The position numbers and the translations under genes are program-made. Of a stretch of DNA of 64,000 nt, positions 2,626 through 40,894 are shown piece by piece. The notes under the pieces are model-generated. The model saw nothing but the letters and a program-made list of their open reading frames with translations, was not told where the DNA came from and made no database searches. The DNA lies in NCBI GenBank assembly GCA_017427265.1, contig JAFRTG010000031.1, positions 30,303-94,302 of the forward strand. The letters run 5' to 3'. This DNA comes from Oscillospiraceae bacterium (lineage in GTDB: Bacteria > Bacillota > Clostridia > Oscillospirales > Ruminococcaceae). Numbering within the stretch: the stretch's first letter is position 1; the number at the start of each line of letters is the position of its first letter.

Positions 2626-4899
2626 ATGGAAAAAGAACGCAATGACAAGAACATCGGAAAGAAGCTCGACGGTCGCTATGAAATTACGGAGTTGATCGGA
2701 GAGGGCGGCATGGCTGATGTGTATCGTGCAACGGATGTTGTCGATAACAAAACGGTCGCCGTCAAAATCCTGAAAAAGGAGTTTGCCGAGAATGAGGAAT
2801 TCCTGCGCAGATTCCGCAATGAGTCCAAGGCGATTGCCGTGCTCAGTCACCCGAACATCGTGAAGATTTTCGATGTCGGGTTCTCGGAGCGCATTCAGTT
2901 TATCGTCATGGAATATATCGACGGCATTACACTGAATGAATATATGGAGCAGCAGGGACAGCTCGGCTGGAAGGATGCCGTGCACTTCATTCTGCAGATC
3001 CTGCGCGCACTCCAGCACGCGCACAGCAAGGGCATCGTGCACCGTGACATCAAGCCGCAGAATATCATGATGCTCCGCGACGGCACCATCAAGGTCATGG
3101 ACTTCGGCATTGCCAAATTCGCCCGCGAGGACGGCAAAACCGGTACCGATAAGGCCATCGGCACCGTGCACTATATCAGCCCGGAGCAGGCCAGAGGCGG
3201 CGTCACCGATGCAAAGAGCGATATTTATTCCGTCGGTGTGATGCTCTACGAGATGCTGACCGGCAAAAAGCCGTTCGATACCGACAATCCTGTCAGTATT
3301 GCGGTTATGCACATGCAGGCCAAGGTTCCGATGCCGCATTCCATCCGTCCCGACATCCAGATCGGTCTGGAGGAGATCATTCTCAAGGCGATGGAAAAGG
3401 ATCCGGTCAACCGGTATCAGTCTGCACGCGATATGATGGACGACCTGCAGACGTTCAAAGAGAACCCGGACGGTGTGTTCGGCTATTACCCCGAGTTGTT
3501 CGGCGGAGATGTGGAGGAAACAGATTTGTTTGATGAAACCGGCGATTCCGGCAAGACGAGATACTATAAGCCTGTAACAGAGGAATCTGAGATTCCGCAG
3601 GAAGAGCGTTATTACGATGACGGTCAGGATCCTTTCTACGAGGAAGAGCAGTACTACGATGAGGATTATGACGACAGAGACTATGACCGCGGATACAGCC
3701 GCGACTATGATGACGAGGACGATGAGGAGGAAGAGGAGGAGAGCAGATCGCTCTTTGTCCCGATTCTCAGTGCTGTCATTATCGTGGTCATTGTTGTGGC
3801 CGGCGTTCTGTTCACAACGCTGATCTACGGTATGCTGAAGAATCAGGGTACCGGAGATAATGCAGAAACCGGTATGCCGAACCTCTACAATATGGATGTG
3901 GAAGAGGCGCGCCGCGCTTACGGCGATCTTGACATTGTCATCATCAGCCGTGAGTATTCCGACCTCGAAAACGGCAAGATCTTCGATCAGGATGTCAAGC
4001 CGAACAACCCGGTCAAGAAGGGCGATACCGTCAACGTCAAGGTTTCGCTCGGCGCAAAGAAGGTGCAGCTCCCTGACGTCAAGGACTGGACCTATGAAAT
4101 GGCAAAGAACGAGATTCTGCGCCTCGGTCTGTTCGTGGACAAGCGTTCTGCTTATGACGATACGGTTCCGGAAGGCAATGTCATCTCGACGGATCCGGCA
4201 GGCCCGACCGAGCTTGAGCCGAACAGCTATGTTCGTGTGACGGTTTCGCTCGGCAAGAACAAGGACGTCGTTGCTGTTCCGAACTTCATCGGCATGGACT
4301 GGGATCTCGCCCAGACCACTGCACAGGGCATGAAGCTCGTTCTCGGTAAAAAAGAGGTTGACGATCCTTCTCCGGAAGGCACCGTTCTGAATCAGAACGT
4401 CCGCGTCGGTGAAGAGGTCTCTGAGGAAACGGTCATTGAGCTGACGGTTTCCAGCGGCAAGAAGAAGGATCAGAGTGTCCGCGTTTCGTTCAGCATCCCG
4501 GCCAATACAAACGGCCTGTTCCACATCATGCTCTATGAGGGAGGCGTGGCAAAGGTCGTCGGCAGCAGCTTCAATCCGGAGTATGCCGCAGGTTCCACCA
4601 GCCTGATGGTCGAGGGTAAGGATACTGCTGATATGCTGGCTGTTCTGGTCAATGACAATACCGGTAAGACTGCGAATATCGGTACCTACCACATTGACTT
4701 CAATGCAGGAACTGCATCGCAGGTAAGCGGTGACATTACTGCTGCATTCCAGGAGGTCGGCGGCCTGGCAGGTGCGCAGCCGCAGACGACACAGGCTCCT
4801 GCAACACAGGCTCCGGTTGAGACACAGGCTCCTGCAACACAGGCTCCGGTTGAAACCCAGGCTCCTGTTGAGAACCAGGATCCGGCCGTGGTGGAATAA
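2626..4899 (+). CDS. prkC: PASTA-domain Ser/Thr protein kinase
   Basis: 757 aa. Hanks kinase motifs (GEGGMADVY, VAVK, HRDIKPQN, DFG, SPEQ). One TM helix (AVIIVVIVVAGVLFTTLIY). PASTA-like repeats. GGAGG SD. Confidence 0.93.
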   Translation: MEKERNDKNIGKKLDGRYEITELIGEGGMADVYRATDVVDNKTVAVKILKKEFAENEEFLRRFRNESKAIAVLSHPNIVKIFDVGFSERIQFIVMEYIDGITLNEYMEQQGQLGWKDAVHFILQILRALQHAHSKGIVHRDIKPQNIMMLRDGTIKVMDFGIAKFAREDGKTGTDKAIGTVHYISPEQARGGVTDAKSDIYSVGVMLYEMLTGKKPFDTDNPVSIAVMHMQAKVPMPHSIRPDIQIGLEEIILKAMEKDPVNRYQSARDMMDDLQTFKENPDGVFGYYPELFGGDVEETDLFDETGDSGKTRYYKPVTEESEIPQEERYYDDGQDPFYEEEQYYDEDYDDRDYDRGYSRDYDDEDDEEEEEESRSLFVPILSAVIIVVIVVAGVLFTTLIYGMLKNQGTGDNAETGMPNLYNMDVEEARRAYGDLDIVIISREYSDLENGKIFDQDVKPNNPVKKGDTVNVKVSLGAKKVQLPDVKDWTYEMAKNEILRLGLFVDKRSAYDDTVPEGNVISTDPAGPTELEPNSYVRVTVSLGKNKDVVAVPNFIGMDWDLAQTTAQGMKLVLGKKEVDDPSPEGTVLNQNVRVGEEVSEETVIELTVSSGKKKDQSVRVSFSIPANTNGLFHIMLYEGGVAKVVGSSFNPEYAAGSTSLMVEGKDTADMLAVLVNDNTGKTANIGTYHIDFNAGTASQVSGDITAAFQEVGGLAGAQPQTTQAPATQAPVETQAPATQAPVETQAPVENQDPAVVE

Positions 4900-17451: not shown

Positions 17452-17527
17452 AGGGGCATAGCTCAGTTGGTAGAGCAACGGACTCCAAATCCGTGTGCCG
17501 AGGGTTCGATTCCTTCTGCCCCTGCCA
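17452..17527 (+). tRNA. tRNA-Trp (anticodon CCA)
   Basis: 76-nt cloverleaf folded by hand. Acceptor AGGGGCA/TGCCCCT, D arm GCTC/GAGC, anticodon arm ACGGA-CTCCAAA-TCCGT, T arm GAGGG-TTCGATT-CCTTC, encoded CCA. Confidence 0.93.
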
Positions 17528-27521: not shown

Positions 27522-30500
27522 TTACATTCGCGGCGCGACCGGCGGCAGCGTTTCGCTGTCCGTGTTCGGATTCAGATCGTTGTTGTCATCGTCATCATCG
27601 GTCTTAAAGAAACTTTCACGCGCTGTCCGTTCAGCATCGGTTTCTTCAACCGGCACTTCATCCGGATCAAGAATTGCCGCTTCCATTTCTGTAATGCCGA
27701 GAAGTTCTGCTTCGACCTTTTCCAATTCCGCCTGTGCATCCGCAAGCTCTTGTTCGTGCGGAAATGTCTGTTCAGCGCGTTCCGCAGCCTGAACCATATC
27801 CGCTTCCAGCTTTTCAATTCTGCTTTCGCATTTCGATTTTTCATTCGGAACACCGTTGCCTAGCAGATTCATGAGTCGCTGTGCATTGTCGCTCTTTTCG
27901 TTGAATTCAGCCGCTGCGCGATACGCGACCGGACTCTCACCCTGAACGACAAAGGCGAAGTCCTGCTGCGAACCGTTCATCTGAATCGTCACAGAAAAAT
28001 CTCCGATCTGGAATGCGGGGAGATCGTCAAACGGATTTTTCTGTTTCTGATACAGCAAACTGTGCAGATATTGATTGATGTCCTCACGCTTTGTCAGCGT
28101 TTTGCCCATCGCTGTCCTGACAGTCAGACCGTCGATCTTGCCTTCCGGATTTCTCATTCGGTCAACCGCTACAATGTCTTTCTCAATATCGGTGATGCGT
28201 TCGCGGAGTGAAGCGATCTCACTCGGAATGGTTGCGATCTTGCTGCGCATCTCTCCGGTTTCACGCTGGAATTCTGCTTTTGCAAATTGCAACTCGGAAA
28301 TTTTCATGCCTAGCTCGATACGCTTCCGGAAATTCGGATTGCCCTCTGCCGCAGCTTGCATCTCGCCGTAAGTGAGAACCTTATCGTCACAATCTTCGGA
28401 CACACGAGCCGGTGTTTCATCATCAAGAAGCTGCGCGATGAATCTTGCCTTGTCCGTAACAATCTGATACAGATAGCTGTCCATTGTGCCTTGCGTGATG
28501 TAATTGAAAATCTGAACCTCGCTGAATGTGTTGCCTTGACGAAGTATTCTTCCTTCGCGTTGTTCCAGATCGCTTGGCTTCCACGGCACATCGACATGAT
28601 GCACTGCGGCAAGACGCTCCTGAACATTCGCGCCTGTTCCCAGCGTACCGGTTGATGCAATGACAACACGATATTTACCCGCGTTAATATCACGGAAAAT
28701 ATCTTCACGGTTTTTCGCTTCGGACTTCGGCGCATAAATGATTTCGTCTGCTGGAATCCCTTTTGCAATCAGTTCCTTGCGGATGTAGTCGTAAACAGAG
28801 AAGTTTCCGTCATCGGAATTGACAGCCACATCGGAGAAGATGATCTGTACGCCTTTCTGTTCTGTTGTTTCCGCGTAAATCTCTGCGACCTTATCCACGC
28901 ACGCATCGACCTTACTCGTCTTTGCATCCTCAAAGCCCTCCGGCACTTCGAGCTGGTGCTTTCTCATCAGAGCAGCGACGGCAGAATTGCAAAGACCGGT
29001 CAAACGCGCTTCACTTGTAATGACGAGCATATTGTCGTTACGCGGATCGACTCTGCCTTCGGAAATTAGCCGTGCTCGTTCGACGAGCATCTTGACGAAA
29101 TCTTTTTGCTCCGGAGATGCTTGCACAGTAACAATTTGCGGCTTGCCGGTCTTGAGCTTCGGACGCGGAAGATCGAGCTTTTTTGCAGACTGAATGTCCG
29201 CAAACTCTTTATACATCTGCATCAGTTCCGGAAGATTTGCAAACTTTGCAAAGGTTGTTTTCAGTTTCAGCTCACCGGTCGCACTTTGCTTATGCTGTGT
29301 GGTGACTTTTCCGAATGTCGCTGCCCAATCGTCAAAGCGTTCGACTCCCGCAGCAGCCAGCAAATCGGGACGGAGATAGCGGAGCATGACATAGAGTTCC
29401 GTCATCGAATTACTGACGGGCGTTCCCGTACAAAAAAGCAGATGACCTTGACCAAGTTGTTCGTTGAAGTAGTCACATTTCATTTGCATATCCTGCGCTC
29501 TGCCGGATGCGGAAGTTGTTACGCCGGAAACATTGCCCATTTTCGTTTGAACGAAGCCGTTTTTGAAATTGTGTGCCTCGTCAACAACAAGGTAATCAAA
29601 GCCGAGCTGTTCAAAGTCAAGCAGAATGTCTTTGCCTTTCTGTTTCGACTTCGGATTCATGATACTGTCAAGACGAGCTTTCAGTTTTTTCTTTGCACCC
29701 TCGATCTGTTTTGTTGTCGCGTCTTTCCGATTGCCGTTTGCATTTCGCGTTTCGCGGAGCATATCTTCCAACTCATCGAGCTGCCTTAACAGATACGCTT
29801 TCTGAAATTCCAACGACATGGGCATCTTTTCAAACTGTTCCATTGAAACGATAACCGCATCATAATCGCCGGTAGCGACACGAGCTGCAAACTGATCGCG
29901 CTTTGCTTCGGACGAGAGATCAGCCGCCGACATGGTCAGCAATCTTGCATCCGGATAGAGCTTTCTCCATTCACGCGCCGTCTGTTCGACCAGCGGCTTC
30001 GGAACGACCACGCAAGCCTTGTTAATCAGACCGAGCTGCTTTTTCTTCATGACCGCTGTCTGGAATACAGCGGACTTTCCTGCGCCGACAACATGAGCTG
30101 CCAGCGTATTGCCGCCGTATACCGCACGCGCAACACAGTCACGCTGATGCGGACGGAGAGAGAATGATGCAGATTGTCCGTCGAATGTCAGATGTGAACC
30201 GTCATACTTGCGACCAACCAGCGAATTGAACAGATCGTTATATCTGCGTTCGTATTTCGCTCTCCGCGCCGGATCAGCAAAAATCCATTCCGCAAACTTT
30301 TCTTCGATCAGCTTCGCTTTCTCCATTGCTTTTTTCGTTTCGACCGGATCGGTGCGTGTAACTGTTTTACTTGCGTCTTTCGGTGAAGGCACGGTCATCA
30401 TGACAGCAATGCGCCGCTGGTTCAGGAGCTTCTGCGCGATCTCATACATTGTCAATTTGTCTGTTCCGTATGTTGTCCCTTCGTTCACATTGATGTCCTT

Positions 30501-33500
30501 GCGGCTTCCTGCTTGCATAATGTCAAATTCGCCGGTCACAGGAGAATACTTCACTTCGCAGCGCGTATCCCACGACCGTCTACCGGAAAGTTCTTGCAGA
30601 AATTTCGTGTAATCTTCCGCATCAATCCACGGGCATCCCATACGGACAGCAATTTCCTCTGCATGAATATCATCCGGAATTACCTCTTGCAGCGCGTCAA
30701 CATTTCGCTGGAAGTCCGGATTATTTTTTGCCATTTCCTGCGCATACGCCAGCTTGCGCCGTACATTGCCGGACAGGTATTCGGCACGCTCCACGATACC
30801 GGAGAATTCTTCTCCTGCGATTTCCTTTTCCGGATCAATGAACACCATGCCTTTTTCCAGCAGTTCTGCCTGAACCTGTTTTGTCAATTCTGTAAAAGGT
30901 GTGTCCGGATATTGCGCTTGCAGCAGCGTCGCCATATACGGAATGTTCGGCTTGCCGCGCCGGTCAAGTGAAACCTGATAGGCTTCCTCAAGCGTTTCAA
31001 CCGCTGTGATCTCCATGACAGGATTGACCGTGCGCTTATTGAAGATTTCTGCCTTGTGATATGTTTTTGTATCGGAGTCGTATTCTTCCAGAGATTGCAG
31101 CAAAGCATAATCGGCATCCGCGCCGAAAGCCTTTTTGACTGCATCGGAATTGAGCTGACCGTATTTTGCAACAAATTCGTCATACTGCCGGTTCAAGTGT
31201 TCCCGCAGCGGTATCAGCGCAAAATCCTCGACTGCTGTTTTCTGTTTGTCGATCAACTGTCTTGTCAGGATGCGCAGCTCAATCAACCTTTTCAGCCGGT
31301 CAATTTCCGCAGCCGAGCCGGTGATCTGCCGCATCGTCTTTCCTTCGTTGTAGTATAATTTGCCTTCTTTTTCCTGATAGGTAAACTGTTTACCCCACGG
31401 CTGAATAAATCCGCGCCGTTCCTGCGCAGCCTTTTCCCGTTTTGTGACTGTGATTTTCGCGTTAAGCTGTTTTACAGCAGCGGCAAGCTGCTTTTTCAGG
31501 TCTGCACCTTCAATCGGATCACAGGTCAGCCGGTCAAAATGGCTTGTCTGCCGCATTGTTCCGAGCATCATCTGCGGATTCTGCACGAAATAGGAATTGA
31601 TACGCATATCCGGATTCTCATCAGAAATCGGCGCGACATAGCACCAGTCCGGTTTCGGTGCATCCGGCGACAGCGGTTCAGCGCGTTTTTGCAGGAAGAT
31701 AATATCCGTCGATACGCCAGTACCCGCATCGGAGAAAGCAGTATTCGGCAATCTGATTGCGCCGATCAAATCAGCGTGCGTCGCAAGGTACTCACGCACC
31801 TTCGGATTCTTCTTGTCAAGCGTACCGGTTGAAGTCACGAATGCGACTACGCCGCCAGCAGCAACCTTGTCAAGAGCTTTCCGGAAGAATGCGTCATGAA
31901 TCAGCCAGTCCTGCGTATAGTCCGGATCGTTCATTTTATAGTCACCGAACGGCACATTCCCGATGACGAGATCAAAGCTGTTATCTTCCTGACCGCTTCG
32001 CTCGAATGCGCTGTGCATGATTGTAACATTTGAATTATCTGCATTCAGGCGCATAGCGATCTGTGCTGTAATGTCATCGAGTTCCACGCCGACCACACCG
32101 GCATTGCCGATACTGTGCGGCATTCTTGTGATAAAGTTTCCTGTTCCGCAAGCCGGTTCCAATACTCTGGAATCACGCGGAAGCCCCATGCTCTGAATTG
32201 CGGAATACATTGCATCAATGACAATCTGCGGCGTATAGTGCGCGTCCGTCGAGCTTGCTTTTGCAGATGCGTATTCTTCCGGAGTCAGCAGCTTTTGCAG
32301 CTCTGCACGCAGCTCCGCGTACCGTCCGGACTTTGCATCAAACACCTGACTCAAACCGCCCCAGCCGGAATATTTACGCAGCCTTTCATCGGAATTCTCC
32401 CTGCAATGCCATTGATTGCGTCTTGGATCGTAAAGCGGTTCTCCTGCCGCTTCGCAGCGTGCTAATCTGTGCAGTTCACGGATAGCTTCGATGTTGTCGC
32501 GTACCTTTTGCAGCGGAGCTTTTGCATAGACGATTTCCGGCAGCGAATCCGGCACAGGCGGCAGTTCTGACTTGCCCCTTGCGGAAACTGCATATTTTCT
32601 GCCGTTTGCGTCCTCTACTCTGTGTCCGCGCCGTCTTTCCGTTTCTACGAACCGTTGCAGTATCTCGGTGCATTCAGTCGGACTAATCTGATCGTTGTCA
32701 CCCCAATAGGGCTGTTCACCGAGCTGCTTATCCGAGCCGTCTGCATAAGTCTCAAAAATACCAACCTCACGCGATCCTGTAAAACGAAGATCGAGCGCAC
32801 CAAGCCCATGTTCTTCCGAAAAATCGTTCAGAATGCCGCGCAGATGCGCATTTTCATCTGTCCTGACCGGTTCTTCCGGTTCTGCAACATCCTGAATCTC
32901 GTCCTTATCCGGCACAAGCACGATTTCCTCACCGAGCCGGTCATGATACCGCGTCAGCGTCCGGTCAGCAAACTGCGCGTTTTTGAGGTTTTGCAGGAAA
33001 GTCTGTTCCAGTGATGCTTGCAGCTTCGTGTCTACGCGCCCGTTCTCGTCAGCGACTTCCACATAGTATGTTCCATGCGGCGGCACGCCGTCCTGCTGGA
33101 ACGAGAATACATGACAGGTCTTTTCATCATGATCGAGCAGGAATGTAATGTCCGGATCGGACAAAGCGTCGCCGTTTTGATAATAGTAGGTCGTAAACGC
33201 ATACATCCCATCACCGATCATTTGAACAGACAACGGCTCATATCCGCTGTTTTCGTCTGCTTCATAGTGTTCGTGCGTATGCTCTCCGCTGATAATCTGC
33301 GGATACATCTCCGAAAGGAGCTTGTAGAGTTCTTCCGGTCGTGTCAGCCGTCCGCGCCGCCTTGCCGGTTCTTCCGGTTCGGATTGTTTATCCGTGTCGT
33401 TTTCAGGATTGACATTTGTGTCAACCTTTTCCGATTCGGCTTCCGCTGTCGCTTGTGGCTCAACTCTTTGGAAATCACCGCTATTGATAAACTCCTGTGC

Positions 33501-36500
33501 AACAAAGGTCACGCGGGAAACAAGTCTCGGCGCATTTTCCAGAGCTGTATCTTTCAGCGTGATGAAACTGTCCATATCAAGGCTTTCGACTTCATATTCC
33601 TTGCCTTTGTAAATCAGGTGATCTCCCACCGCAAGCTCCGGTGCAGAATGTTCGGGATTGACATTTGTGTCAACTTCCGGAGCAATGCTTGTTTCAGGCA
33701 TCTTCGCTGCCGCTGCATCCGCAAGCTGCTGCACGACCGATGCCTTTACAACGCTGATCGGAGCATTCCCGGCTTCATTCAGCAACATTTCTTTCCAGTT
33801 TCCGATTCTGCTGCCGGTGTTTCCGGTTTCGTCTGAACGCAGATCAATCTTGAAATCGCCGTCAATCGCTGTTACAGTGTAGTTTCCGTTCGGTAGTCCG
33901 ATAGAATCACCGACCGCCAGCTCGTCCAGTACACGCCGGTTCTCGTCCCGCACAAAGGTGATGAGATTTGACAGCGGTTTACCGTCCGCAATCTGCGGCG
34001 GCTGTTTATCAATCTGCTGATCTGCATTCTGTGCATCAGAAGTCAGGTTTACATGATATTTGCCTTCAGCGATGATTGCAAACGCCTTTTCGGTTTTTTC
34101 TTCGTCACCGAGAATCTCATACAATGCTCGTTTGATGTGATTGATCTTCGGTCTGTTGTCGCCTTTTTCCCAATCAGCCATTCTTGCCCCGTCAAATGCT
34201 GTAATCAAATCACGCATCTGTTCATCGGTCATTTCGGGGAATGCTTCGTGCAGATCATCGCGCACCCACCAGAACGCGAGGTCGTTGAATTCCTCGTGAA
34301 TATGGTCAAGAAACGCCTGCCCGATTTCTTCAAACGACACATTTCTCTCAATTCCGTTGAAATAGCAACTGTAACCGTCCGCTGTTCTCTGCGTTTCCAG
34401 CGTGTGACGCTCACTCTCCGGATGATAGAATGTTCTGCCCGAAATCTTGCCTTCTTCAAAGACAAATTCAATACGCGAAGTGCCGCTTCCTTCCAGCAGT
34501 CCAAGTGCCAGCTCACGCCGAATATCCTCGCCGTCATGGAAGCGGCGTGCAAGATCGTACAAAGCCGATTCGCTTAAATGATACCCGAACGCGGCTTTAT
34601 CACTCGGCTGATGTTTGTCGAGATAGCCGCGATCATAAAGCGGATACGCCAGATCTTCCCATTCGTCCGAAGAAAGCGTGCGATCTGCGAGAAATCCGGC
34701 AAGGTCTGCGTTTCGGAAATCGGCTGCATCAGCTTTCTGCGTCATTTTACGCTGAACATCAGCACGCTGTTCGCTTGTCAGATGTACGAGATCATCGAAG
34801 CTCATATCCTCAAGACCGTGTTCCACCATATCTTCCAATGATGCAAACTGCATGACCGCTGCATCCAGACCGGCATACTGCGTAACAATCCGGAAGTTTT
34901 GGAGATCAGCATACACCTGAATTTCTGCTTCTGTGTCCTCGTCAGTCGTATATGCAAGATTCACATGGGAAAGATCATTGAAATCTGCTTCGCTATTGTA
35001 TTCAGCCACGCAGAAATCGTTGATAAGGTTCACGGCACGGTCAAAGAGCATATCCGAAATGTATTCCTCAAAGCCGTTTTCAGCAGCTCTGCGGCTGGAA
35101 TAACCGGTCTGATCTTCGATCTTTGAACCGCGAATCTCAATATCGAATGTTCCTTCGGGGTTCGCAACGATAAAATAACGATCTCCGTTCATCGTTTCCG
35201 TAGCGTAGACGGTCGGTTCTCCGTCATCATTTTCTGTTTCCGAGATCGGTGTCCATACTCTTGCTGCCGTCTGTTCGTTCTGCGTTTCCTGCGGACTGTT
35301 TTTCAGGGCTTCTGCGATATAACCGCGAATCTCAGCCGCCTGTGTCGGAGAATAATTAGAAGCATGATACCGGTCAAAGAATTCCTGCGCACTGATTTTC
35401 ATACCCTCGCTGTCAAAAAGTACCATACCGGCGATTTCATAGCTGTCCATTTGCCGGTTTGTATCTCTGTTGAGATAGCGATTTTTCAGGGCTTCTACCG
35501 TCAGCGGTTCACTGACCGCCGCAGCTTGCTTTTGCCCGTCTGCCGGAAAGTCCTCTGAATGGAAGATGACCGACTTTTCGTATTTTGCAATGGTCTGATC
35601 GGCGGGAAGTCTATCACCGATGATCTGAACGAGCTGTGTCGGATTCGCTGTCTGCATAATCCGCATCAGCTTTTCCGTATCCGGCAGCGCGTTCCATTGC
35701 TCCGTAAACTTTGCAAGCTGCCGCGCTGCTTCCGCTTCAATCCGTTTCCTGTTAGAATCGGAAACTTCTGCGTAATACTGCACATTGCCTTCTTCGGAGA
35801 TATGTGCAACCGTCAGATAGTCAGAGGAATGCGGCTGCGTCCGTGCCGTGTCATAGACCGTGATGCCGTTTCCAAGCAGACCAAATTCGATAGTCGATTC
35901 CGGTTCTGTTTCAGCAAGCTGCGCCGGTTCATCATCGTGCAGCGCGGGAAGCGGAGCTTCTGTGTGAACGGTCAATGTCTGGAAAGGGCTGTTTGCATAG
36001 ACTTCATCGCTGAATACGCCGCTGGTAGGAAAATCGCCGTCATAGACTTCGACTTTGTGTTCATGCTGATTCAGAATCGCATATCCGATTGCTTTGCCGT
36101 CCCATATCGCTTCATTTCCTGCATCCTGCGCATCTTCCAGCCTGTCAAAAGTATCGCCTAGCTGCACATCCGGCACATTCAGCATCAGAATATAACGCGG
36201 CTTCGGCTTTTCTGCTTTCGGTTCGCTTGATACTGTCAGTTGCTCTGCACGGTCAACAAACCGGTACATATCAGCAAACAACCTGTCACGCTCTGCCGGA
36301 CTGTAAAGATTATAGGTATCCGTAATGGGATAGTCATTCTTATCAGACCACATTTCCGACTCAACAATGCCATTTCCGCGATAAGTGAATGTGAGTGACT
36401 GCGAATGACCGGAATAATTATCTCTGCGCTCGTGTCCGTCACTGTCCATACCGCCTTCATACTGCGAATAGCTGTCTGTCAGCGTGAAGCTCTCAACGGC

Positions 36501-39500
36501 AGCAAGGTCAATGGTCTGATCGGACTCCGGAATCTCAAAAACTGTTTTCACGGGCGGCAGTTCCGGCATGAAGCCCTTTCCAAAGCGTTCTGTCAGATAT
36601 GCGACAGAATCTGCGGTCAGATAGCAGTTGTTATCATATGCCGTCTGAATAACTTTCTGCACATCTGCAAGGTTCGCGTTTTCAGAAAGACGCGCATAGA
36701 ATACCTGCGTGTCAGCAATCAGCATATTCGTTTCACCGGTATCCTCAAAGGAATCTGTCCGAGCTGCGACCTTGATCGCGTTAAACCCCTGCGGATTGCC
36801 GGTAAACTGAATGTCGATCAGGTCATACTTGTGAGCAAAGAAGTCCGGCATGACTTCAAAGCCGACCGGTTGGACATAGTACGGTGTTCTGCCGCTGCCT
36901 TCGGTCACGACAACCACATCGCTGGTACTCATAGAACGCCCGAAGAAGTCGGCTGGATGATCTGTATTGAACTTTTCAAACAGCGCATTCAGTTTCTGCT
37001 GGACGGTATCGCCCTCAATGTCCCGCAGATCGCCGGAGTAAACGAGATCGTAATCATCCTGCGTCAGATGCGCGTACTTGTTGGATTCCATGCTCTCAAA
37101 GCGGTGATAATGATGTTCTTCGCCGGATTTCAACTGGTAGATTTCATAGGTGAAAGCCGGTTCAACGCTTTCTACTTCAAAGCCCATAGCCTGTACTTCA
37201 CGCAGTACAGCAGAGCTGTCTGCCATTCCGAAGTTGCGGATAATCAGATCATCTTCCCTGTCGCCGTCCGCCATAAGAAGATACCCCTGTTCCGCATCGA
37301 AGTGTAACCGATAGTTGTAAAAATCCTGCTTTCTTGCGTTCGTGATATATCCGCTTTCGTCAGAATCGCGTGTATCGTCCAGATACACATCGCGGTGATG
37401 ATCGAGCGCGTCAGCAGCTTCCAAATTTGCAGAAACCTCTCGCTCCGCAGCTTCTTCCCACTCCCGTTCCACATTGGCATCAAGCTGTGCTTCACGCTCC
37501 TGCGCTCTTTTCGCACGGAAAGCGTCCATTGCTTCCTGTGTGATTTCGATATGCTCCGCATCAGCCGACTGCAAGAATGCAATGTTATCTTCTAACTCCT
37601 GCCGCTTTTCAAGCGTCAGCTCCGAGCTTTCCAGTCTGCGCTGCATGGACTGGATTGCTTTGTCAATCTCACGCTGACGAATCGCAATAGATTCCGCATC
37701 CATTTCCGGTTCAGAGTTGCTACTTGTGTCAACTTTTTCATCTTCCGGCTGATCGAACAGCGTGTGCTGTCCCTGTCTGAAAGAAAGAAACTGCTGAAAC
37801 GCCGCCGACTGCTCCAGTTTTGCAAGTGCAGATTCCAGTACAGCTTCTGTGAAACGCGCTCCCTGCTCCAGCGTAAAGATACGCGCCTGAAATTCAACTG
37901 TTCTACCGTTCTTTATCAGGAGATCATAGGCTCTGCCTTCACCGGCATAGTCCTTATCCTTCTTGACAAACACATCCAGTCCATCAAGACCATACTTTGC
38001 AGAGAATGCTGCAAGCATTTCAGCTCTGCGCTCCTTGCTGATCGGCTTTTCCGGTTCGGTTGTGGGCGAATTCTGTGCAGAAATTTCAGATAACCTCTTG
38101 ACATTTTCATCCGTATATGTTATACTATCATCAAAGCAGAGAATGTCTGTCCACTTGGGAAATTGGATCCCTATGTCCGCAGACAGTTTCTCTGCTTTTT
38201 CTATGTTTACTGCAAGGATGTTTCCGTTTGAAAGCTCCCGTTGAATATAGTCACCTATGTTTTTCTTTCCATACACGGATGTGATATTGTTTACTTCGCT
38301 TCTTCGACCGGCTGCGTTCAGTTTCAGCGAAACCAGAAGATGATTTCCGTCCCGATCAATCAAATCAGTAATCACAGCCAATGATTCCGGTTTACTGCCC
38401 TTGAGAACAAAAATGGGATTACGCAATGCCGAAGGAAGCTGCTTTATTATATCGGGAGATAACTCATGCCCTTCCGTATGCACGCGACTTGCTTTTCCGG
38501 CTGCAAGACTGTTTTTCAAAACAGACTGCTTGATAATAATCGGTATTGCATCCGCACCAACAATCCGCAGACTATACGGCGTAGTACCTACGCGGAACAC
38601 TTCTTCCGAAGATATGCTGCCATTGATATAGGAATCAATCTTGCTGCTGAAATCTTCATCCTCTGCGGCATTGCGCTCAATCTTCTGCTGCTGTCCATGT
38701 GTCAGCGGCTTTGACTGCTGTTCCAGCACAACAAAACCGTCAGTCTGATCGGCTGACGGTTTCTCTGTCGGCGCAAACGCCTGTGCAATTTTATCGGTTA
38801 CGGAGTCGTGACTGCCAGATGCACGATGTCCCTGATCGTCGCGCTGTCCGTGTAGTGTGTCCTCGTCTGCTCCCATTCCAGAATCTTCTCGAAGCCGTGC
38901 GGACGGGGATTCGCTTCCATGTACTGCTCGTCCAGCCGGTTCCGGTATTCCCATGCTCTCTTGTCCACTGACCGCGCTACCGTCAGATAACGGTGATGAA
39001 ACTTCATCACTTCGACTTTCTCCGGATGATTGTCCTCCATCCACTGCATCCACATCATTCCGTAAGTCCCTATCGGTTCTTGCTGCATCGTCGGTTCTTC
39101 TTGTTCCGTCCGCATCTCGTATGTCCCGTTCTCCGGATTCACCTGATACCAGAATGTCACCCCGTACCGCTGTTCCGCTTTCATCAACGGGAGGAATAAT
39201 GTCTTGATGCCGTTCTCCGTTTCCTGCACCACTTCCCAGCCCAGCACGCCGTCCTTCCTCATCGCTCTGGACTGCGTCAGGAAGTTGTGCAGCATCTCCT
39301 TCGGGACTTCCGGCAGCTCCGCGTCCGGAATCTGCTGCATTTCCTCTGCCGCCAGCTTCTGAAATTCCTCGTACTTCATCCTGAACCATCCTTTCTGCTC
39401 TCTGTTTCTGCAAATCAGCAACTACCTGTTCGATTTGCTCCAGCGTGCGTTTTGTTACCGCCGCAGCCATTGTAATAAAGCCGATCTGCTGTTCTTCGGT

Positions 39501-40088
39501 CATGATCTTAAAGATTGACTGATCTGTTACCGTCGGAAAAGAATTGCCGCCGACTTCCAGCCGTCCTGCGATCATGGTAGCAACTGTGGTAAGAAACGAA
39601 TTTTTGAATGTTTCCGCATTCTGCGGCTGAACGCCGAGCTGCTGCATTGCTGCCGTAACATATTCGGACGAATATGCTCTGCCGACCAGTCCGTTCAGAA
39701 ACTCCCGATCTGCCGGAAGCCTCAGCGTACTGCGCACGGCAGCTTCGATTTCCGCGCTCATGTGCCATTGCTGCGGCACACGCTCCGGATGCTCGCACTG
39801 CGTAATGTCGTACATCGGCACAATACGGTCGCGTGAATCACGAAACCGAATTGCGCTGCTGTCCGGCAGAACCGGATTGCCAAGCCGTTCCCACTGTGCA
39901 AGCGTCGCCACAAAGCGGCTTTCCGGTCTTTGTACGAAGAATTCCAGCGAAACTGACGGAGATTGCTTATACATCCGTCCGTGAAATTTCAGGTACTCCG
40001 CATAGACCGTCGTATTATCAGCCATTTCGCGCAGCATCTCTGCACCGGCTTGGCTGAATCCGCCGATAGGTGTGACATTCTCTGCCAT
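27522..40088 (-). CDS. giant polyvalent protein (4188 aa): ArdC-N-like, MuF-C-like, many unassigned modules, N6-adenine DNA methyltransferase, SNF2-family helicase
   Basis: Uninterrupted 12.6-kb ORF with SD AAGGAGGAAACAGTCAG before the ATG. MTase motif I LEPACGTGNF and motif IV GNVPFG. Helicase motifs GAGKS, DEAH, TGTP and QREGRILRQGN. Confidence 0.85.
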   Translation of the reverse strand: MAENVTPIGGFSQAGAEMLREMADNTTVYAEYLKFHGRMYKQSPSVSLEFFVQRPESRFVATLAQWERLGNPVLPDSSAIRFRDSRDRIVPMYDITQCEHPERVPQQWHMSAEIEAAVRSTLRLPADREFLNGLVGRAYSSEYVTAAMQQLGVQPQNAETFKNSFLTTVATMIAGRLEVGGNSFPTVTDQSIFKIMTEEQQIGFITMAAAVTKRTLEQIEQVVADLQKQRAERMVQDEVRGISEAGGRGNAADSGRGAAGSPEGDAAQLPDAVQSDEEGRRAGLGSGAGNGERHQDIIPPVDESGTAVRGDILVSGESGERDIRDADGTRRTDDAARTDRDLRNDVDAVDGGQSSGESRSDEVSSPLSDGSAVSGQESMGIPEPAGRAVHGSESPSARLREDSGMGADEDTLHGQRDDQGHRASGSHDSVTDKIAQAFAPTEKPSADQTDGFVVLEQQSKPLTHGQQQKIERNAAEDEDFSSKIDSYINGSISSEEVFRVGTTPYSLRIVGADAIPIIIKQSVLKNSLAAGKASRVHTEGHELSPDIIKQLPSALRNPIFVLKGSKPESLAVITDLIDRDGNHLLVSLKLNAAGRRSEVNNITSVYGKKNIGDYIQRELSNGNILAVNIEKAEKLSADIGIQFPKWTDILCFDDSITYTDENVKRLSEISAQNSPTTEPEKPISKERRAEMLAAFSAKYGLDGLDVFVKKDKDYAGEGRAYDLLIKNGRTVEFQARIFTLEQGARFTEAVLESALAKLEQSAAFQQFLSFRQGQHTLFDQPEDEKVDTSSNSEPEMDAESIAIRQREIDKAIQSMQRRLESSELTLEKRQELEDNIAFLQSADAEHIEITQEAMDAFRAKRAQEREAQLDANVEREWEEAAEREVSANLEAADALDHHRDVYLDDTRDSDESGYITNARKQDFYNYRLHFDAEQGYLLMADGDREDDLIIRNFGMADSSAVLREVQAMGFEVESVEPAFTYEIYQLKSGEEHHYHRFESMESNKYAHLTQDDYDLVYSGDLRDIEGDTVQQKLNALFEKFNTDHPADFFGRSMSTSDVVVVTEGSGRTPYYVQPVGFEVMPDFFAHKYDLIDIQFTGNPQGFNAIKVAARTDSFEDTGETNMLIADTQVFYARLSENANLADVQKVIQTAYDNNCYLTADSVAYLTERFGKGFMPELPPVKTVFEIPESDQTIDLAAVESFTLTDSYSQYEGGMDSDGHERRDNYSGHSQSLTFTYRGNGIVESEMWSDKNDYPITDTYNLYSPAERDRLFADMYRFVDRAEQLTVSSEPKAEKPKPRYILMLNVPDVQLGDTFDRLEDAQDAGNEAIWDGKAIGYAILNQHEHKVEVYDGDFPTSGVFSDEVYANSPFQTLTVHTEAPLPALHDDEPAQLAETEPESTIEFGLLGNGITVYDTARTQPHSSDYLTVAHISEEGNVQYYAEVSDSNRKRIEAEAARQLAKFTEQWNALPDTEKLMRIMQTANPTQLVQIIGDRLPADQTIAKYEKSVIFHSEDFPADGQKQAAAVSEPLTVEALKNRYLNRDTNRQMDSYEIAGMVLFDSEGMKISAQEFFDRYHASNYSPTQAAEIRGYIAEALKNSPQETQNEQTAARVWTPISETENDDGEPTVYATETMNGDRYFIVANPEGTFDIEIRGSKIEDQTGYSSRRAAENGFEEYISDMLFDRAVNLINDFCVAEYNSEADFNDLSHVNLAYTTDEDTEAEIQVYADLQNFRIVTQYAGLDAAVMQFASLEDMVEHGLEDMSFDDLVHLTSEQRADVQRKMTQKADAADFRNADLAGFLADRTLSSDEWEDLAYPLYDRGYLDKHQPSDKAAFGYHLSESALYDLARRFHDGEDIRRELALGLLEGSGTSRIEFVFEEGKISGRTFYHPESERHTLETQRTADGYSCYFNGIERNVSFEEIGQAFLDHIHEEFNDLAFWWVRDDLHEAFPEMTDEQMRDLITAFDGARMADWEKGDNRPKINHIKRALYEILGDEEKTEKAFAIIAEGKYHVNLTSDAQNADQQIDKQPPQIADGKPLSNLITFVRDENRRVLDELAVGDSIGLPNGNYTVTAIDGDFKIDLRSDETGNTGSRIGNWKEMLLNEAGNAPISVVKASVVQQLADAAAAKMPETSIAPEVDTNVNPEHSAPELAVGDHLIYKGKEYEVESLDMDSFITLKDTALENAPRLVSRVTFVAQEFINSGDFQRVEPQATAEAESEKVDTNVNPENDTDKQSEPEEPARRRGRLTRPEELYKLLSEMYPQIISGEHTHEHYEADENSGYEPLSVQMIGDGMYAFTTYYYQNGDALSDPDITFLLDHDEKTCHVFSFQQDGVPPHGTYYVEVADENGRVDTKLQASLEQTFLQNLKNAQFADRTLTRYHDRLGEEIVLVPDKDEIQDVAEPEEPVRTDENAHLRGILNDFSEEHGLGALDLRFTGSREVGIFETYADGSDKQLGEQPYWGDNDQISPTECTEILQRFVETERRRGHRVEDANGRKYAVSARGKSELPPVPDSLPEIVYAKAPLQKVRDNIEAIRELHRLARCEAAGEPLYDPRRNQWHCRENSDERLRKYSGWGGLSQVFDAKSGRYAELRAELQKLLTPEEYASAKASSTDAHYTPQIVIDAMYSAIQSMGLPRDSRVLEPACGTGNFITRMPHSIGNAGVVGVELDDITAQIAMRLNADNSNVTIMHSAFERSGQEDNSFDLVIGNVPFGDYKMNDPDYTQDWLIHDAFFRKALDKVAAGGVVAFVTSTGTLDKKNPKVREYLATHADLIGAIRLPNTAFSDAGTGVSTDIIFLQKRAEPLSPDAPKPDWCYVAPISDENPDMRINSYFVQNPQMMLGTMRQTSHFDRLTCDPIEGADLKKQLAAAVKQLNAKITVTKREKAAQERRGFIQPWGKQFTYQEKEGKLYYNEGKTMRQITGSAAEIDRLKRLIELRILTRQLIDKQKTAVEDFALIPLREHLNRQYDEFVAKYGQLNSDAVKKAFGADADYALLQSLEEYDSDTKTYHKAEIFNKRTVNPVMEITAVETLEEAYQVSLDRRGKPNIPYMATLLQAQYPDTPFTELTKQVQAELLEKGMVFIDPEKEIAGEEFSGIVERAEYLSGNVRRKLAYAQEMAKNNPDFQRNVDALQEVIPDDIHAEEIAVRMGCPWIDAEDYTKFLQELSGRRSWDTRCEVKYSPVTGEFDIMQAGSRKDINVNEGTTYGTDKLTMYEIAQKLLNQRRIAVMMTVPSPKDASKTVTRTDPVETKKAMEKAKLIEEKFAEWIFADPARRAKYERRYNDLFNSLVGRKYDGSHLTFDGQSASFSLRPHQRDCVARAVYGGNTLAAHVVGAGKSAVFQTAVMKKKQLGLINKACVVVPKPLVEQTAREWRKLYPDARLLTMSAADLSSEAKRDQFAARVATGDYDAVIVSMEQFEKMPMSLEFQKAYLLRQLDELEDMLRETRNANGNRKDATTKQIEGAKKKLKARLDSIMNPKSKQKGKDILLDFEQLGFDYLVVDEAHNFKNGFVQTKMGNVSGVTTSASGRAQDMQMKCDYFNEQLGQGHLLFCTGTPVSNSMTELYVMLRYLRPDLLAAAGVERFDDWAATFGKVTTQHKQSATGELKLKTTFAKFANLPELMQMYKEFADIQSAKKLDLPRPKLKTGKPQIVTVQASPEQKDFVKMLVERARLISEGRVDPRNDNMLVITSEARLTGLCNSAVAALMRKHQLEVPEGFEDAKTSKVDACVDKVAEIYAETTEQKGVQIIFSDVAVNSDDGNFSVYDYIRKELIAKGIPADEIIYAPKSEAKNREDIFRDINAGKYRVVIASTGTLGTGANVQERLAAVHHVDVPWKPSDLEQREGRILRQGNTFSEVQIFNYITQGTMDSYLYQIVTDKARFIAQLLDDETPARVSEDCDDKVLTYGEMQAAAEGNPNFRKRIELGMKISELQFAKAEFQRETGEMRSKIATIPSEIASLRERITDIEKDIVAVDRMRNPEGKIDGLTVRTAMGKTLTKREDINQYLHSLLYQKQKNPFDDLPAFQIGDFSVTIQMNGSQQDFAFVVQGESPVAYRAAAEFNEKSDNAQRLMNLLGNGVPNEKSKCESRIEKLEADMVQAAERAEQTFPHEQELADAQAELEKVEAELLGITEMEAAILDPDEVPVEETDAERTARESFFKTDDDDDNNDLNPNTDSETLPPVAPRM
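28450..30200 (-). other. SNF2/DEAD-like helicase domain of the giant ORF
   Basis: Walker A AHVVGAGKSAVFQ (about 30061-30099), DYLVVDEAHN (about 29570-29600), motif VI QREGRILRQGN (about 28531-28566). Confidence 0.85.
31700..32260 (-). other. N6-adenine DNA methyltransferase domain of the giant ORF
   Basis: Motif I VLEPACGTGNFI is encoded at 32131-32166. Motif IV LVIGNVPFGD is encoded at 31941-31970. Confidence 0.8.
33408..33425 (+). repeat. ICE 18-nt motif, copy 3 (variant ATTGACATTTGTGTCAAC)
   Basis: Inside the giant ORF, read as VDTNVN. Confidence 0.8.
33657..33674 (+). repeat. ICE 18-nt motif, copy 4 (variant ATTGACATTTGTGTCAAC)
   Basis: Inside the giant ORF, read as VDTNVN. The 20 nt GGATTGACATTTGTGTCAAC are identical to copy 3, 249 nt away. 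Confidence 0.8.
37716..37733 (+). repeat. ICE 18-nt motif, copy 5 (exact)
   Basis: Inside the giant ORF, read as VDTSSN. 29 nt including flanks are identical to copy 9. Confidence 0.9.
38170..38610 (-). other. MuF-C-like module of the giant ORF
   Basis: The segment FRVGTTPYSLRIVG...IIKQSVLKNSL...HELSPDIIKQLPSALRNPIFVL...ITSVYGKK resembles the phage MuF C-terminal domain common in polyvalent proteins (from memory). Confidence 0.4.
38798..39379 (-). CDS. TnpV-like protein, nested out of frame (+1) inside the giant ORF
   Basis: 193 aa from ATG 39379 (AAAGGA upstream). Globular W/Y/F/M-rich sequence, IGTYGMMWMQWMEDNHPEK...RYLTVARSVDKRAWEYRNRLDEQY, recalling the TnpV family (from memory). GC3-rich codons like neighbouring genes. 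Confidence 0.6.
   Translation of the reverse strand: MKYEEFQKLAAEEMQQIPDAELPEVPKEMLHNFLTQSRAMRKDGVLGWEVVQETENGIKTLFLPLMKAEQRYGVTFWYQVNPENGTYEMRTEQEEPTMQQEPIGTYGMMWMQWMEDNHPEKVEVMKFHHRYLTVARSVDKRAWEYRNRLDEQYMEANPRPHGFEKILEWEQTRTHYTDSATIRDIVHLAVTTP
39420..40088 (-). other. ArdC-N-like (ssDNA-binding antirestriction) module of the giant ORF
   Basis: The pattern Y-x-x-S-x(9)-Q-x-P-x(10)-W-x-x-LG-x-x-V is reminiscent of the ArdC N-terminal domain. Recalled from memory and needs an HMM search. Confidence 0.4.
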
Positions 40089-40131
40089 CTGACTGTTTCC
40101 TCCTTGATTTTAGCACATTAAACTGTAAAAG

Positions 40132-40653
40132 TCAAGACCTATTTAGACCAAATTTAGACCAAATTCCAATATCGCCCTCTTTCGCCTGTTGTTCAATCTG
40201 CACAAATCGTGCAGCGTATCGTGTATTCGGCTGAATTGTCAGCACTGTTGCCATGCCGTTTTCCAGCAGCGTTTCCTCGACCATTTTGTGATCGAGCCAA
40301 ACATACGCAAGTGTTCTGCCGTAACTGTCAGTCCGTTCTCTGTCATATTCCAGATACACTTGCTTGCCGGTCAACAGCTCTGCTGTAAATTCTGAGGCGA
40401 TCTTGCCGGACTCCGAATTTCTGGACGAATCGGGATGCACAGATTCCGGCGCATCAACTCCGATCAGCCGGACTGTTGTTTCGCTGCCCTCAATGGAAAC
40501 GATGATCGTGTCACCGTCCACAACACGCAGCACCTCATACGCGCCGAAATGTTCCGTTTGCTTCACTAGAAAGTAAAGCAAAACGGTTCCTGCAAATGCA
40601 GACAGCAACAGGCAATGCTGCAAAGCTGCCAAAGGCTTTCGCTTTCGTTTCAT
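40132..40653 (-). CDS. thermonuclease (SNase-like) with N-terminal signal/anchor
   Basis: 173 aa from the ATG after AAGGAG. Hydrophobic N-terminus. VVDGDTIIV...VRLIGVDAPE...GRTLAYVW motifs. Confidence 0.8.
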   Translation of the reverse strand: MKRKRKPLAALQHCLLLSAFAGTVLLYFLVKQTEHFGAYEVLRVVDGDTIIVSIEGSETTVRLIGVDAPESVHPDSSRNSESGKIASEFTAELLTGKQVYLEYDRERTDSYGRTLAYVWLDHKMVEETLLENGMATVLTIQPNTRYAARFVQIEQQAKEGDIGIWSKFGLNRS

Positions 40654-40894
40654 CGCATCACTCCTTGCATACCTAGCTGAAAAGAAAAAAGACGCCGCCG
40701 ATCTGAACCGCACCGCGCCGAAATTGATTGCAGCGCAAAGAATCAGAATGCTGAAAACCGATCACGCTTATTGCTTGCATCCTGTGACTGCGGAAATAAA
40801 ATTCAAAAAAATTTTTTCGCGCCTTTATCTAATATAATATACTGTGAGTATAATCGCTTTTTTTCTTTTTCAGTTCAGTAAAAACTTTGGGTAC

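Follow-up and report, generated by a model that had tools for sequence, protein, structure and literature searches.

A nested tnpV gene in the +1 frame of a giant gene

Can the same bases of a bacterial conjugative element serve two proteins at once, one a small protein of an old family and the other a giant multidomain protein read in a different frame of the same strand? This question is raised by a 64,000-nucleotide stretch of DNA from Oscillospiraceae bacterium (GenBank assembly GCA_017427265.1, contig JAFRTG010000031.1, positions 30,303 to 94,302 of the forward strand; hereafter the window, whose numbering is used for all coordinates unless another sequence is named). An earlier note on this DNA had drawn attention to an open reading frame (ORF) for a TnpV-like protein inside a 4188-amino-acid (aa) ORF, and the arrangement is as it described: the inner ORF, 207 codons when read from a TTG start (38798-39421, minus strand), lies wholly within the outer ORF (27522-40088), on the same strand and at an offset of +1. 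Comparative sequence analysis indicates that the two are very probably both genes for proteins, one nested in the other on the same strand of a conjugative element, in other words a case of true dual coding. The features concerned are as follows.

27522..40088, minus strand: outer gene, 4188-aa polyvalent protein, start ATG at 40088 (ORF list and Pfam domains)
39399..40088, minus strand: N-terminal domain, outer protein aa 1-230 (family conservation and outer-frame codon periodicity)
38796..39380, minus strand: outer-frame linker, aa 237-431, on the same bases as tnpV (composition; no stops in relatives)
38798..39379, minus strand: tnpV, 193 aa, in the +1 frame of the outer gene, ATG at 39379 and TAA at 38800-38798
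39389..39394, minus strand: Shine-Dalgarno (SD)-like AAAGGA inside the outer coding sequence (CDS), 9 nt upstream of the tnpV ATG

The 582 bases common to tnpV and the linker carry an unusual codon pattern. Specifically, the 16 T-ending tnpV codons after the ATG are followed 14 times by a C-initial and twice by a T-initial codon and never by one beginning with A or G, even though 62% of tnpV codons begin with A or G; both the count of 16 and the statement that well over half of the codons are A/G-initial had been given correctly in the earlier note. When TnpV is recoded with codon frequencies taken from elsewhere in the giant ORF, 9.4 ± 2.3 stops are expected in the outer frame and none is observed (P < 1/20000, a zero-stop outcome being obtained in none of 20000 recoding trials). 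Permutation of TnpV's own, already skewed synonymous codons still yields a mean of 3.2 outer stops, with P(0) = 0.019. The third positions of tnpV are G in 54% and T in 8% of codons, compared with 29% and 26% elsewhere in the outer gene, and this wobble skew is itself a signature of the overlap; the earlier note had likened the codon bias of the nested ORF to that of its neighbours, which these figures contradict. In the outer frame the same bases encode a linker-like segment, as the note had also stated, with 72% G/S/D/E/A/R, a GRAVY of -1.01, a net charge of -22 and no aromatic residue.

The outer frame stays open across tnpV in related loci

Related loci were collected in two ways. The TnpV-based set comprises loci with TnpV relatives, one genome per species, and contains 46 loci with a full-length homologue; the first TnpV alignment was too divergent for the locus scan, and a trimmed version was used. 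In 41 of these 46 loci, whose TnpVs show 42-100% aa identity, the outer frame (the -1 frame relative to tnpV) contains no stop across tnpV and remains open for 500 to more than 2800 codons, in most cases as far as the locus extends, and the remaining (third) frame of nested loci has 10-27 stops. The independent set consists of metagenome contigs searched with the N-terminal domain of the giant protein. Among the 50 of these loci with at least 230 downstream codons, 40 have a complete +1-frame TnpV right after the N-terminal domain and no outer stop, 5 have truncated, partial or decayed TnpV copies and 5 are without TnpV.

The nested sequences total 73, falling into 47 clusters at 90% and 16 at 60% TnpV aa identity, and come from human gut, rumen and other metagenomes. 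Their TnpVs are 39-80% identical to the window protein. Across all 73 sequences the outer frame contains no stop at all, although the codon usage of each locus would predict approximately 12 per sequence.

A cultured strain shows the same arrangement. Plasmid pRUMAL02, part of the closed Ruminococcus albus 7 genome, carries a short-form TnpV gene of 119 aa (NC_014825.1 215849-216205, minus strand, corresponding to locus L136 5911-6270) in the +1 frame of a giant gene, RUMAL_RS21095 (208116-216926), named 'SNF2-related protein'. This nested tnpV scores 31.6 bits with Pfam, above the cutoff, and has 44% G and 6% T at wobble positions, no outer stop and an upstream SD. The N-terminus of the pRUMAL02 giant protein is homologous to that of the family (21% identity to the profile, hhalign probability 97.9%). 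Two R. albus records are the only matches in a search of the plasmid collection, and word-indexed homologue searches with the outer protein gave 6 and 3 matches, the low-complexity linker having probably swamped the candidate list. As a strain in culture, R. albus 7 would allow the overlap to be tested.

Free-standing copies lose the signature

TnpV genes that stand alone serve as controls. The free-standing long-form TnpVs (loci L006-8, L026, L038 and L043) have 12-23 stops in the -1 frame and a wobble G of 15-24%, compared with 39-62% in 33 nested genes. Additionally, A or G comes next after 57% of the T-ending codons of the free-standing long forms but after 4% (24/604) of those of the 33 nested genes; the corresponding count in the set found through the N-terminal domain is 46/744. 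Short free-standing TnpVs have 3-6 stops per approximately 97 codons. The earlier note had argued that selection keeps the giant frame open across a genuine gene and had suggested a codon-context simulation and a comparison of homologues for outer stops; chance recoding, the related loci and the free-standing controls agree in bearing this out.

In a neighbour-joining tree the free-standing long forms fall inside the nested diversity, being 62-71% identical to the nested TnpV of L014, which suggests that they are old escapes whose codon usage has since relaxed rather than an ancestral free state. Other copies appear, from their sequences, to have left the nested state more recently, retaining TnpV and losing the outer gene. 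In L031, L033 (free-standing long-form tnpV at 4242-4826) and the R. albus plasmid pRUMAL01 (RUMAL_RS17615, a free-standing long-form tnpV at L135 9001-9582, equivalent to NC_014824.1 193050-193631), the -1 frame is still open but is now bounded by stops, with lengths of 216-268 aa, and in L135 the end of the N-terminal domain is still part of it. Within the TnpV-homologous stretch, one stop has appeared in L032 and ten in L132. TnpV itself stays intact in the copies that have escaped from nesting. As for its surroundings, the tnpV of L006 lies between HicAB, which it follows, and a resolvase; upstream of these are a related giant gene and genes for DUF3991/Toprim and Mob_Pre proteins.

Both frames are under selection and the TnpV frame dominates

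A codon alignment of 25 non-redundant loci was used to locate the constraint. In the single-coding flanks, position 3 of the giant frame is least conserved (0.29-0.42), whereas inside the overlap the pattern is shifted by one base: position 3 of TnpV is least conserved (0.47-0.59) and position 2 of TnpV is most conserved (0.60-0.79). In addition, TnpV aa identity exceeds outer-frame aa identity in 22 of 22 pairs, and the fourfold sites of tnpV are more conserved than those of the upstream flank in 20 of 22. From the codon-position shift, the identities and the fourfold sites together, it follows that the TnpV frame dominates conservation in the overlap and that its synonymous sites are not free.

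The outer frame was assessed with a Gibbs null, in which TnpV synonymous codons are redrawn from each locus's flank usage on condition that no outer stop arises. The real outer frame departs from this null in every locus. Residues Y, C and W make up 0.4% of it against 7.1% in the null (z about -4.7), hydrophobic residues 14.6% against 23.7% (z about -5.4), and G, S, D, E and A 56% against 39% (z about +6.6). These differences imply that the outer frame is selected for a hydrophilic, flexible composition, and it may also be selected against codons that are one mutation from a stop. Both frames are therefore conserved and under selection across dozens of lineages, and the non-nested controls lose the signature.

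At the level of single residues, all 47 non-redundant nested sequences use a G-ending codon for TnpV Leu132 (given at the 38876-38878 region of the window), so that the outer frame always has Asp at this point. Val138 and Arg183 likewise have codons that end in G almost without exception, and the outer frame then has Gly. The alignment hints that the linker may hold a few functionally fixed residues. A low-confidence AlphaFold2 (AF2) model gives the linker no predicted secondary structure (pLDDT approximately 30); the segment is probably disordered.

The nested product belongs to the TnpV family

Family membership, which the earlier note had suspected from a sequence pattern, is supported by homology. 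Pfam TnpV (PF14198) matches the window protein over residues 97-173 with 26.0 bits (E = 9.4e-6; gathering cutoff 27) and matches 13 of 14 aligned homologues at E ≤ 0.001, the best at 3.5e-7. A protein search returned 19 homologues with 43-100% identity, nearly all of approximately 193 aa and standing alone; among them is a protein identical to that of the window, NCBI MBQ6041500.1, 'TnpV protein', and several others bear the same NCBI name and precomputed PF14198 matches. No match was obtained in an NCBIfam search. When 1.84 billion representative proteins were searched exhaustively with a profile, 132 TnpV relatives emerged, all of 49-468 aa, and in none of them does the TnpV domain lie in frame within a large protein.

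AF2 prediction on the family alignment gives TnpV a pLDDT of 90.1; residues 34-89 are modelled as a six-stranded beta domain and residues 105-186 as a four-helix C-terminal domain. The added N-terminal beta domain, approximately 95 aa, makes the long-form TnpV twice the canonical length.

Start signals and proposed expression

If tnpV is a gene in its own right, it should be read from its own start, and the start signals are indeed conserved. Either AAAGGA or AGGAGG lies 7-12 nt upstream of the tnpV ATG in nested loci, and an SD-like 4-mer occurs at -20..-4 in 41 of the 47 non-redundant nested loci, compared with 14% of background windows taken from these genes. Of the 47, 46 begin with ATG and all end in a stop codon; in the alignment, the conserved ATG coincides with the position at which free-standing homologues begin. 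Upstream of it, the closest stop in the TnpV frame is a median of 14 codons away, and only 0-2 codons away in several loci. The SD, the ATG and the close upstream stops together fit independent internal initiation of TnpV.

A promoter consensus scan of the minus strand found no site before tnpV, and the number of sites was no higher than in shuffled sequence. The sole promoter-like site on this strand (40107-40135) precedes the giant ATG, for which it is a weak promoter candidate, and for this reason one mRNA read in two frames is the simplest model. We propose that ribosomes starting at the ATG at 40088 would make one giant polyvalent protein, in which an acidic, probably disordered linker of approximately 195 residues would tie the N-terminal domain to the MuF_C/YodL/methylase/helicase body. 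Ribosomes entering at the internal SD and ATG (39394-39377) would read one base further on and make a separate, folded TnpV of 193 aa, so that both products would come from a single mRNA. The wobble choice of TnpV would keep the linker open and hydrophilic, with G-ending codons favoured, T-ending codons avoided and, where a T-ending codon is used, a C- or T-initial codon almost always following.

Weighing other explanations

Could one of the two frames be open without being translated? NCBI annotates tnpV together with a giant gene of 3784 aa starting at Met405, and one might take these two as the only real genes, the outer frame over tnpV being open through composition or chance and the N-terminal ORF being separate or dead. 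The low complexity of the linker and its faster evolution relative to TnpV fit such a view. However, it leaves unexplained why 73 sequences have no outer stop where about 12 are expected in each and why free-standing homologues have 12-23; furthermore, the N-terminal domain shows coding periodicity and is always upstream in the same frame, the composition of the linker is selected beyond the avoidance of stops, and Met405 is no conserved start, being Val in the closest relatives. We consider this explanation extremely improbable. The converse, that only the giant ORF is translated and the TnpV frame is the silent relic of a swallowed gene preserved by outer-frame constraint, agrees with the R. 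albus 7 gene table, which lists the giant CDS alone, and with the lack of a promoter-like site directly upstream of tnpV. Selection on the outer frame alone would nevertheless produce the opposite of what is found, since the most conserved position of the overlap is outer position 3, that is, TnpV position 2. The TnpV ORF is moreover intact down to 39% identity (ATG in 46/47, SD in 41/47, stop in 47/47), its product is confidently folded in the model (pLDDT 90) and it remains intact in copies without the outer gene, and we give a silent relic hardly any credence.

A different reading accepts both frames and has TnpV made, wholly or in part, by a programmed +1 frameshift, the internal SD acting as stimulator and the product being a fusion of the N-terminal domain with TnpV. 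Internal SD motifs stimulate frameshifting in prfB and dnaX, and this precedent, the +1 position of tnpV and the conserved SD-like motif inside the CDS just upstream all suit such a mechanism. Initiation accounts better for the conservation of the ATG and its alignment with the starts of free-standing homologues, and for the SD-to-ATG spacing of 7-12 nt; the in-frame stop 0-2 codons before the ATG in several loci leaves no room for a shift, and no conserved slippery motif was noticed, though no systematic search was made. Frameshifting is, in our judgement, very unlikely. Finally, the window comes from a metagenome-assembled genome, in which compensating indels or a similar assembly or sequencing error could merge genes into one open frame. 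The earlier note had raised this worry about an assembly indel, and it can be dismissed: the same architecture in 73 independently assembled sequences and in the closed genome of R. albus 7 excludes an artefact.

Several points weigh against nested dual coding. The Pfam score of the window TnpV falls just below the gathering cutoff, and neither the PDB sequence search nor the Foldseek fold search found a relative of TnpV. Because the loci share ancestry, their individual z-scores do not count as independent tests. On the outer frame, constraint at specific sites is modest (distant lineages have a fourfold identity of 0.466 versus 0.405 expected by composition), for which reason the linker may need only to be open and hydrophilic. 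Likewise, AF2 on outer aa 1-660 with a shallow alignment reaches a pLDDT of 42, which is weak evidence for disorder. The nested pair with two translated products is still the reading that we prefer, and with a high degree of confidence.

The outer gene and its conjugative element

The outer protein combines an N-terminal domain, the linker, MuF_C, YodL, DUF6908, an N6 DNA methylase and an SNF2/DEAD helicase, in that order. The features beyond the overlap are the following, all on the minus strand.

38190..38486: MuF_C, outer aa 535-633 (Pfam PF18819, E = 4.9e-22), the first recognised domain past the linker
Outer aa 981-1083: YodL (Pfam)
Between YodL and the methylase in domain order: DUF6908 (Pfam)
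Outer aa 2604-2803: N6 DNA methylase, N6_Mtase (Pfam)
Outer aa 3309-3852: DEAD/SNF2/Helicase_C module (Pfam)
40107-40135: promoter-like site, TTGACT, 17-nt spacer and TAAAAT with an upstream TG (consensus scan only)

The neighbouring genes encode a staphylococcal-nuclease (SNase) homologue, a helix-turn-helix (HTH) protein, a topoisomerase, a VirB4-like ATPase, a VirD4 coupling protein, a DUF3991/Toprim protein and a Mob_Pre relaxase. Because these neighbours mark a conjugative element, the giant protein, with its many unrelated effector and enzymatic domains, is assigned to the polyvalent proteins (cf. PMC5512222). The SNase homologue gene (40132-40713, minus strand) lies directly upstream of the giant gene on the same strand, and the promoter-like site occupies the short gap between it and the giant ATG.

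The N-terminal domain is conserved in 66 metagenome loci, in which position 3 of the outer frame is least conserved. The window domain itself matches nothing in Pfam or, by sequence, in the PDB; among 13 members of its family, one is matched by ArdcN (E = 0.0027) and one by BHD_2 (E = 0.24). An ArdC-N domain at the N-terminus is typical of polyvalent proteins, frequent but not obligatory. The label 'ArdC-like' in the earlier note accordingly receives support from one family member and none from the window domain, which may be distantly ArdC-N-like.

Other long alternative-frame or antisense ORFs of 152-300 aa occur in the giant gene, at 28310-28768 (minus strand) and at 29106-29789, 33018-33836, 35559-36161 and 36405-37307 (plus strand). 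They have no Pfam match and are treated as chance. An Rfam scan of the region gave no match. The sole RNA gene in the window is a tRNA-Trp with a CCA anticodon (17452-17527, plus strand), which may mark where the conjugative element integrated or ends.

Origin of the overlap

Which of the two frames came first? The TnpV helical domain is widespread as a small free-standing gene, and the linker is without relatives of its own. Judged on these sequences, TnpV looks like the older and more constrained partner and the linker like the overprinted frame. In L092 and L095, the same N-terminal domain is joined to the body by an unrelated K/E-rich, probably helical segment, and TnpV is absent from every forward frame, as it also is from L128 (the regions concerned being L095 3907-6606, L092 and L128 1106-2728, the last a high-GC variant). 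In a midpoint-rooted neighbour-joining tree of the N-terminal domain, L092 and L095 lie inside TnpV-nested clades and the nested state is found on both sides of the root; on this tree, nesting appears to be the ancestral state of the sampled family. Identity in the outer N-terminal domain goes down to 21%.

We infer that the arrangement arose by fusion of an N-terminal-domain gene to the giant gene, reading through tnpV. The earlier note had envisaged an overprinting fusion of three genes, namely an ArdC-like gene, tnpV and the helicase/methylase gene, and this scheme is compatible with dual coding and offers a plausible origin, short of a demonstrated one. As a side observation, L110 (4713-5033) has only the C-terminal helical half of TnpV (profile positions 86-192) nested, with a shorter linker. 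Together with the short form of R. albus, it raises the question whether the beta domain of the long form arose inside the overlap.

More broadly, the locus may exemplify a new route of gene fusion, in which the gene for the N-terminal (possibly ArdC-N-like) domain was welded to the giant gene through a still-essential tnpV, overprinting a disordered tether; long co-evolution and repeated escapes with codon relaxation would have followed, the beta domain may have been born in the overlap, and a functional link between TnpV and the polyvalent protein would be implied. We put this full scenario forward tentatively, with rather less than an even chance of being right.

Annotation and use of the locus

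Current pipelines mishandle the locus by shortening the giant protein or leaving tnpV out. NCBI models TnpV (MBQ6041500.1) and a 3784-aa 'N-6 DNA methylase' (MBQ6041499.1) that starts at Met405, inside the overlap, and so drops 404 residues including the conserved N-terminal domain, whereas the ENA and Logan gene calls contain the exact 4188-aa product. The prediction of the earlier note that automatic annotation would report the giant ORF alone therefore applies to the R. albus 7 gene table, from which tnpV is omitted, and fails for the window, where NCBI annotated tnpV and truncated the giant gene instead.

With its built-in controls, namely free-standing, escaped, decayed and TnpV-less copies, the family offers a natural system for the effects of dual coding on codons, evolutionary rate and composition. 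It also points to a way in which genes may fuse over another gene lying between them, the overprinted product being a disordered linker. The tight link to the polyvalent proteins of conjugation provides a first hint on the function of TnpV.

Comparison with known systems

Pairs in which a gene is nested on the same strand and one frame is overprinted and probably disordered are already known. The product of comS, for example, has approximately 46 aa. Before 2019, comS and rpmH were the only characterised cases among bacterial out-of-frame nested genes (2025 preprint, PMC11230408). Both comS in srfA of Bacillus subtilis and GndA, a 36-aa microprotein in gnd of E. coli, resemble tnpV in being separate out-of-frame proteins encoded on the same strand wholly inside another gene, and they are translated from their own internal starts (PMC11230408), as proposed here for tnpV from its start signals. 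Unlike these small and young products, TnpV is a protein of 193 aa, predicted to be folded, from an old and widespread family. In comS and GndA it is the inner frame that is overprinted, whereas here it appears to be the outer one, and unlike them the tnpV pair is conserved over dozens of species, with outer N-terminal identity down to 21%.

Rz/Rz1 and other overprinted genes of phages and viruses likewise have one gene fully in the +1 frame of another, and viral overprints share with the tnpV pair one ordered or ancestral frame and one compositionally biased, probably disordered frame. According to a bioRxiv report (10.1101/229690), overlapping regions generally encode more disorder. Rz/Rz1-type pairs are found in size-limited viruses, whereas the tnpV pair lies on a conjugative element, and its overprinted product would be a linker joining the parts of a polyvalent protein rather than a new protein.

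The TnpV of Tn4451 and Tn4453 (PF14198) is homologous to the window TnpV over the C-terminal helical domain, and both are found on mobile elements with a Mob_Pre relaxase. It lacks the approximately 95-aa N-terminal beta domain of the window subfamily, and in Tn4451 the gene is free-standing rather than nested in another gene. For the Tn4451 TnpV, an Xis-like excision role has been postulated (PMC3158075). The outer gene, in turn, resembles the giant multidomain polyvalent proteins of conjugative elements, having MuF_C, YodL, N6 methylase and SNF2 helicase domains on an element with type IV secretion; where typical members have an ArdC-N domain at the N-terminus, it has a domain that may be distantly ArdC-N-like. 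The paper that described these proteins (Iyer, Burroughs, Anand, de Souza and Aravind 2017, PMC5512222) makes no mention of TnpV, overlapping genes or frameshifting, and full-text searches of open-access papers turned up no account of a nested TnpV or of dual-coding polyvalent proteins, though an earlier one may exist in a subscription journal.

Taken together, these comparisons set the tnpV/giant pair apart as an unusually long and well-controlled bacterial overlapping gene pair. What is new relative to the known systems is that the inner gene is long (193 codons) and encodes an old protein with a predicted fold, that the overprinted product appears to be a fusing linker, and that the pair is deeply conserved, in approximately 47 non-redundant lineages, within a family that itself supplies escaped and relaxed controls.

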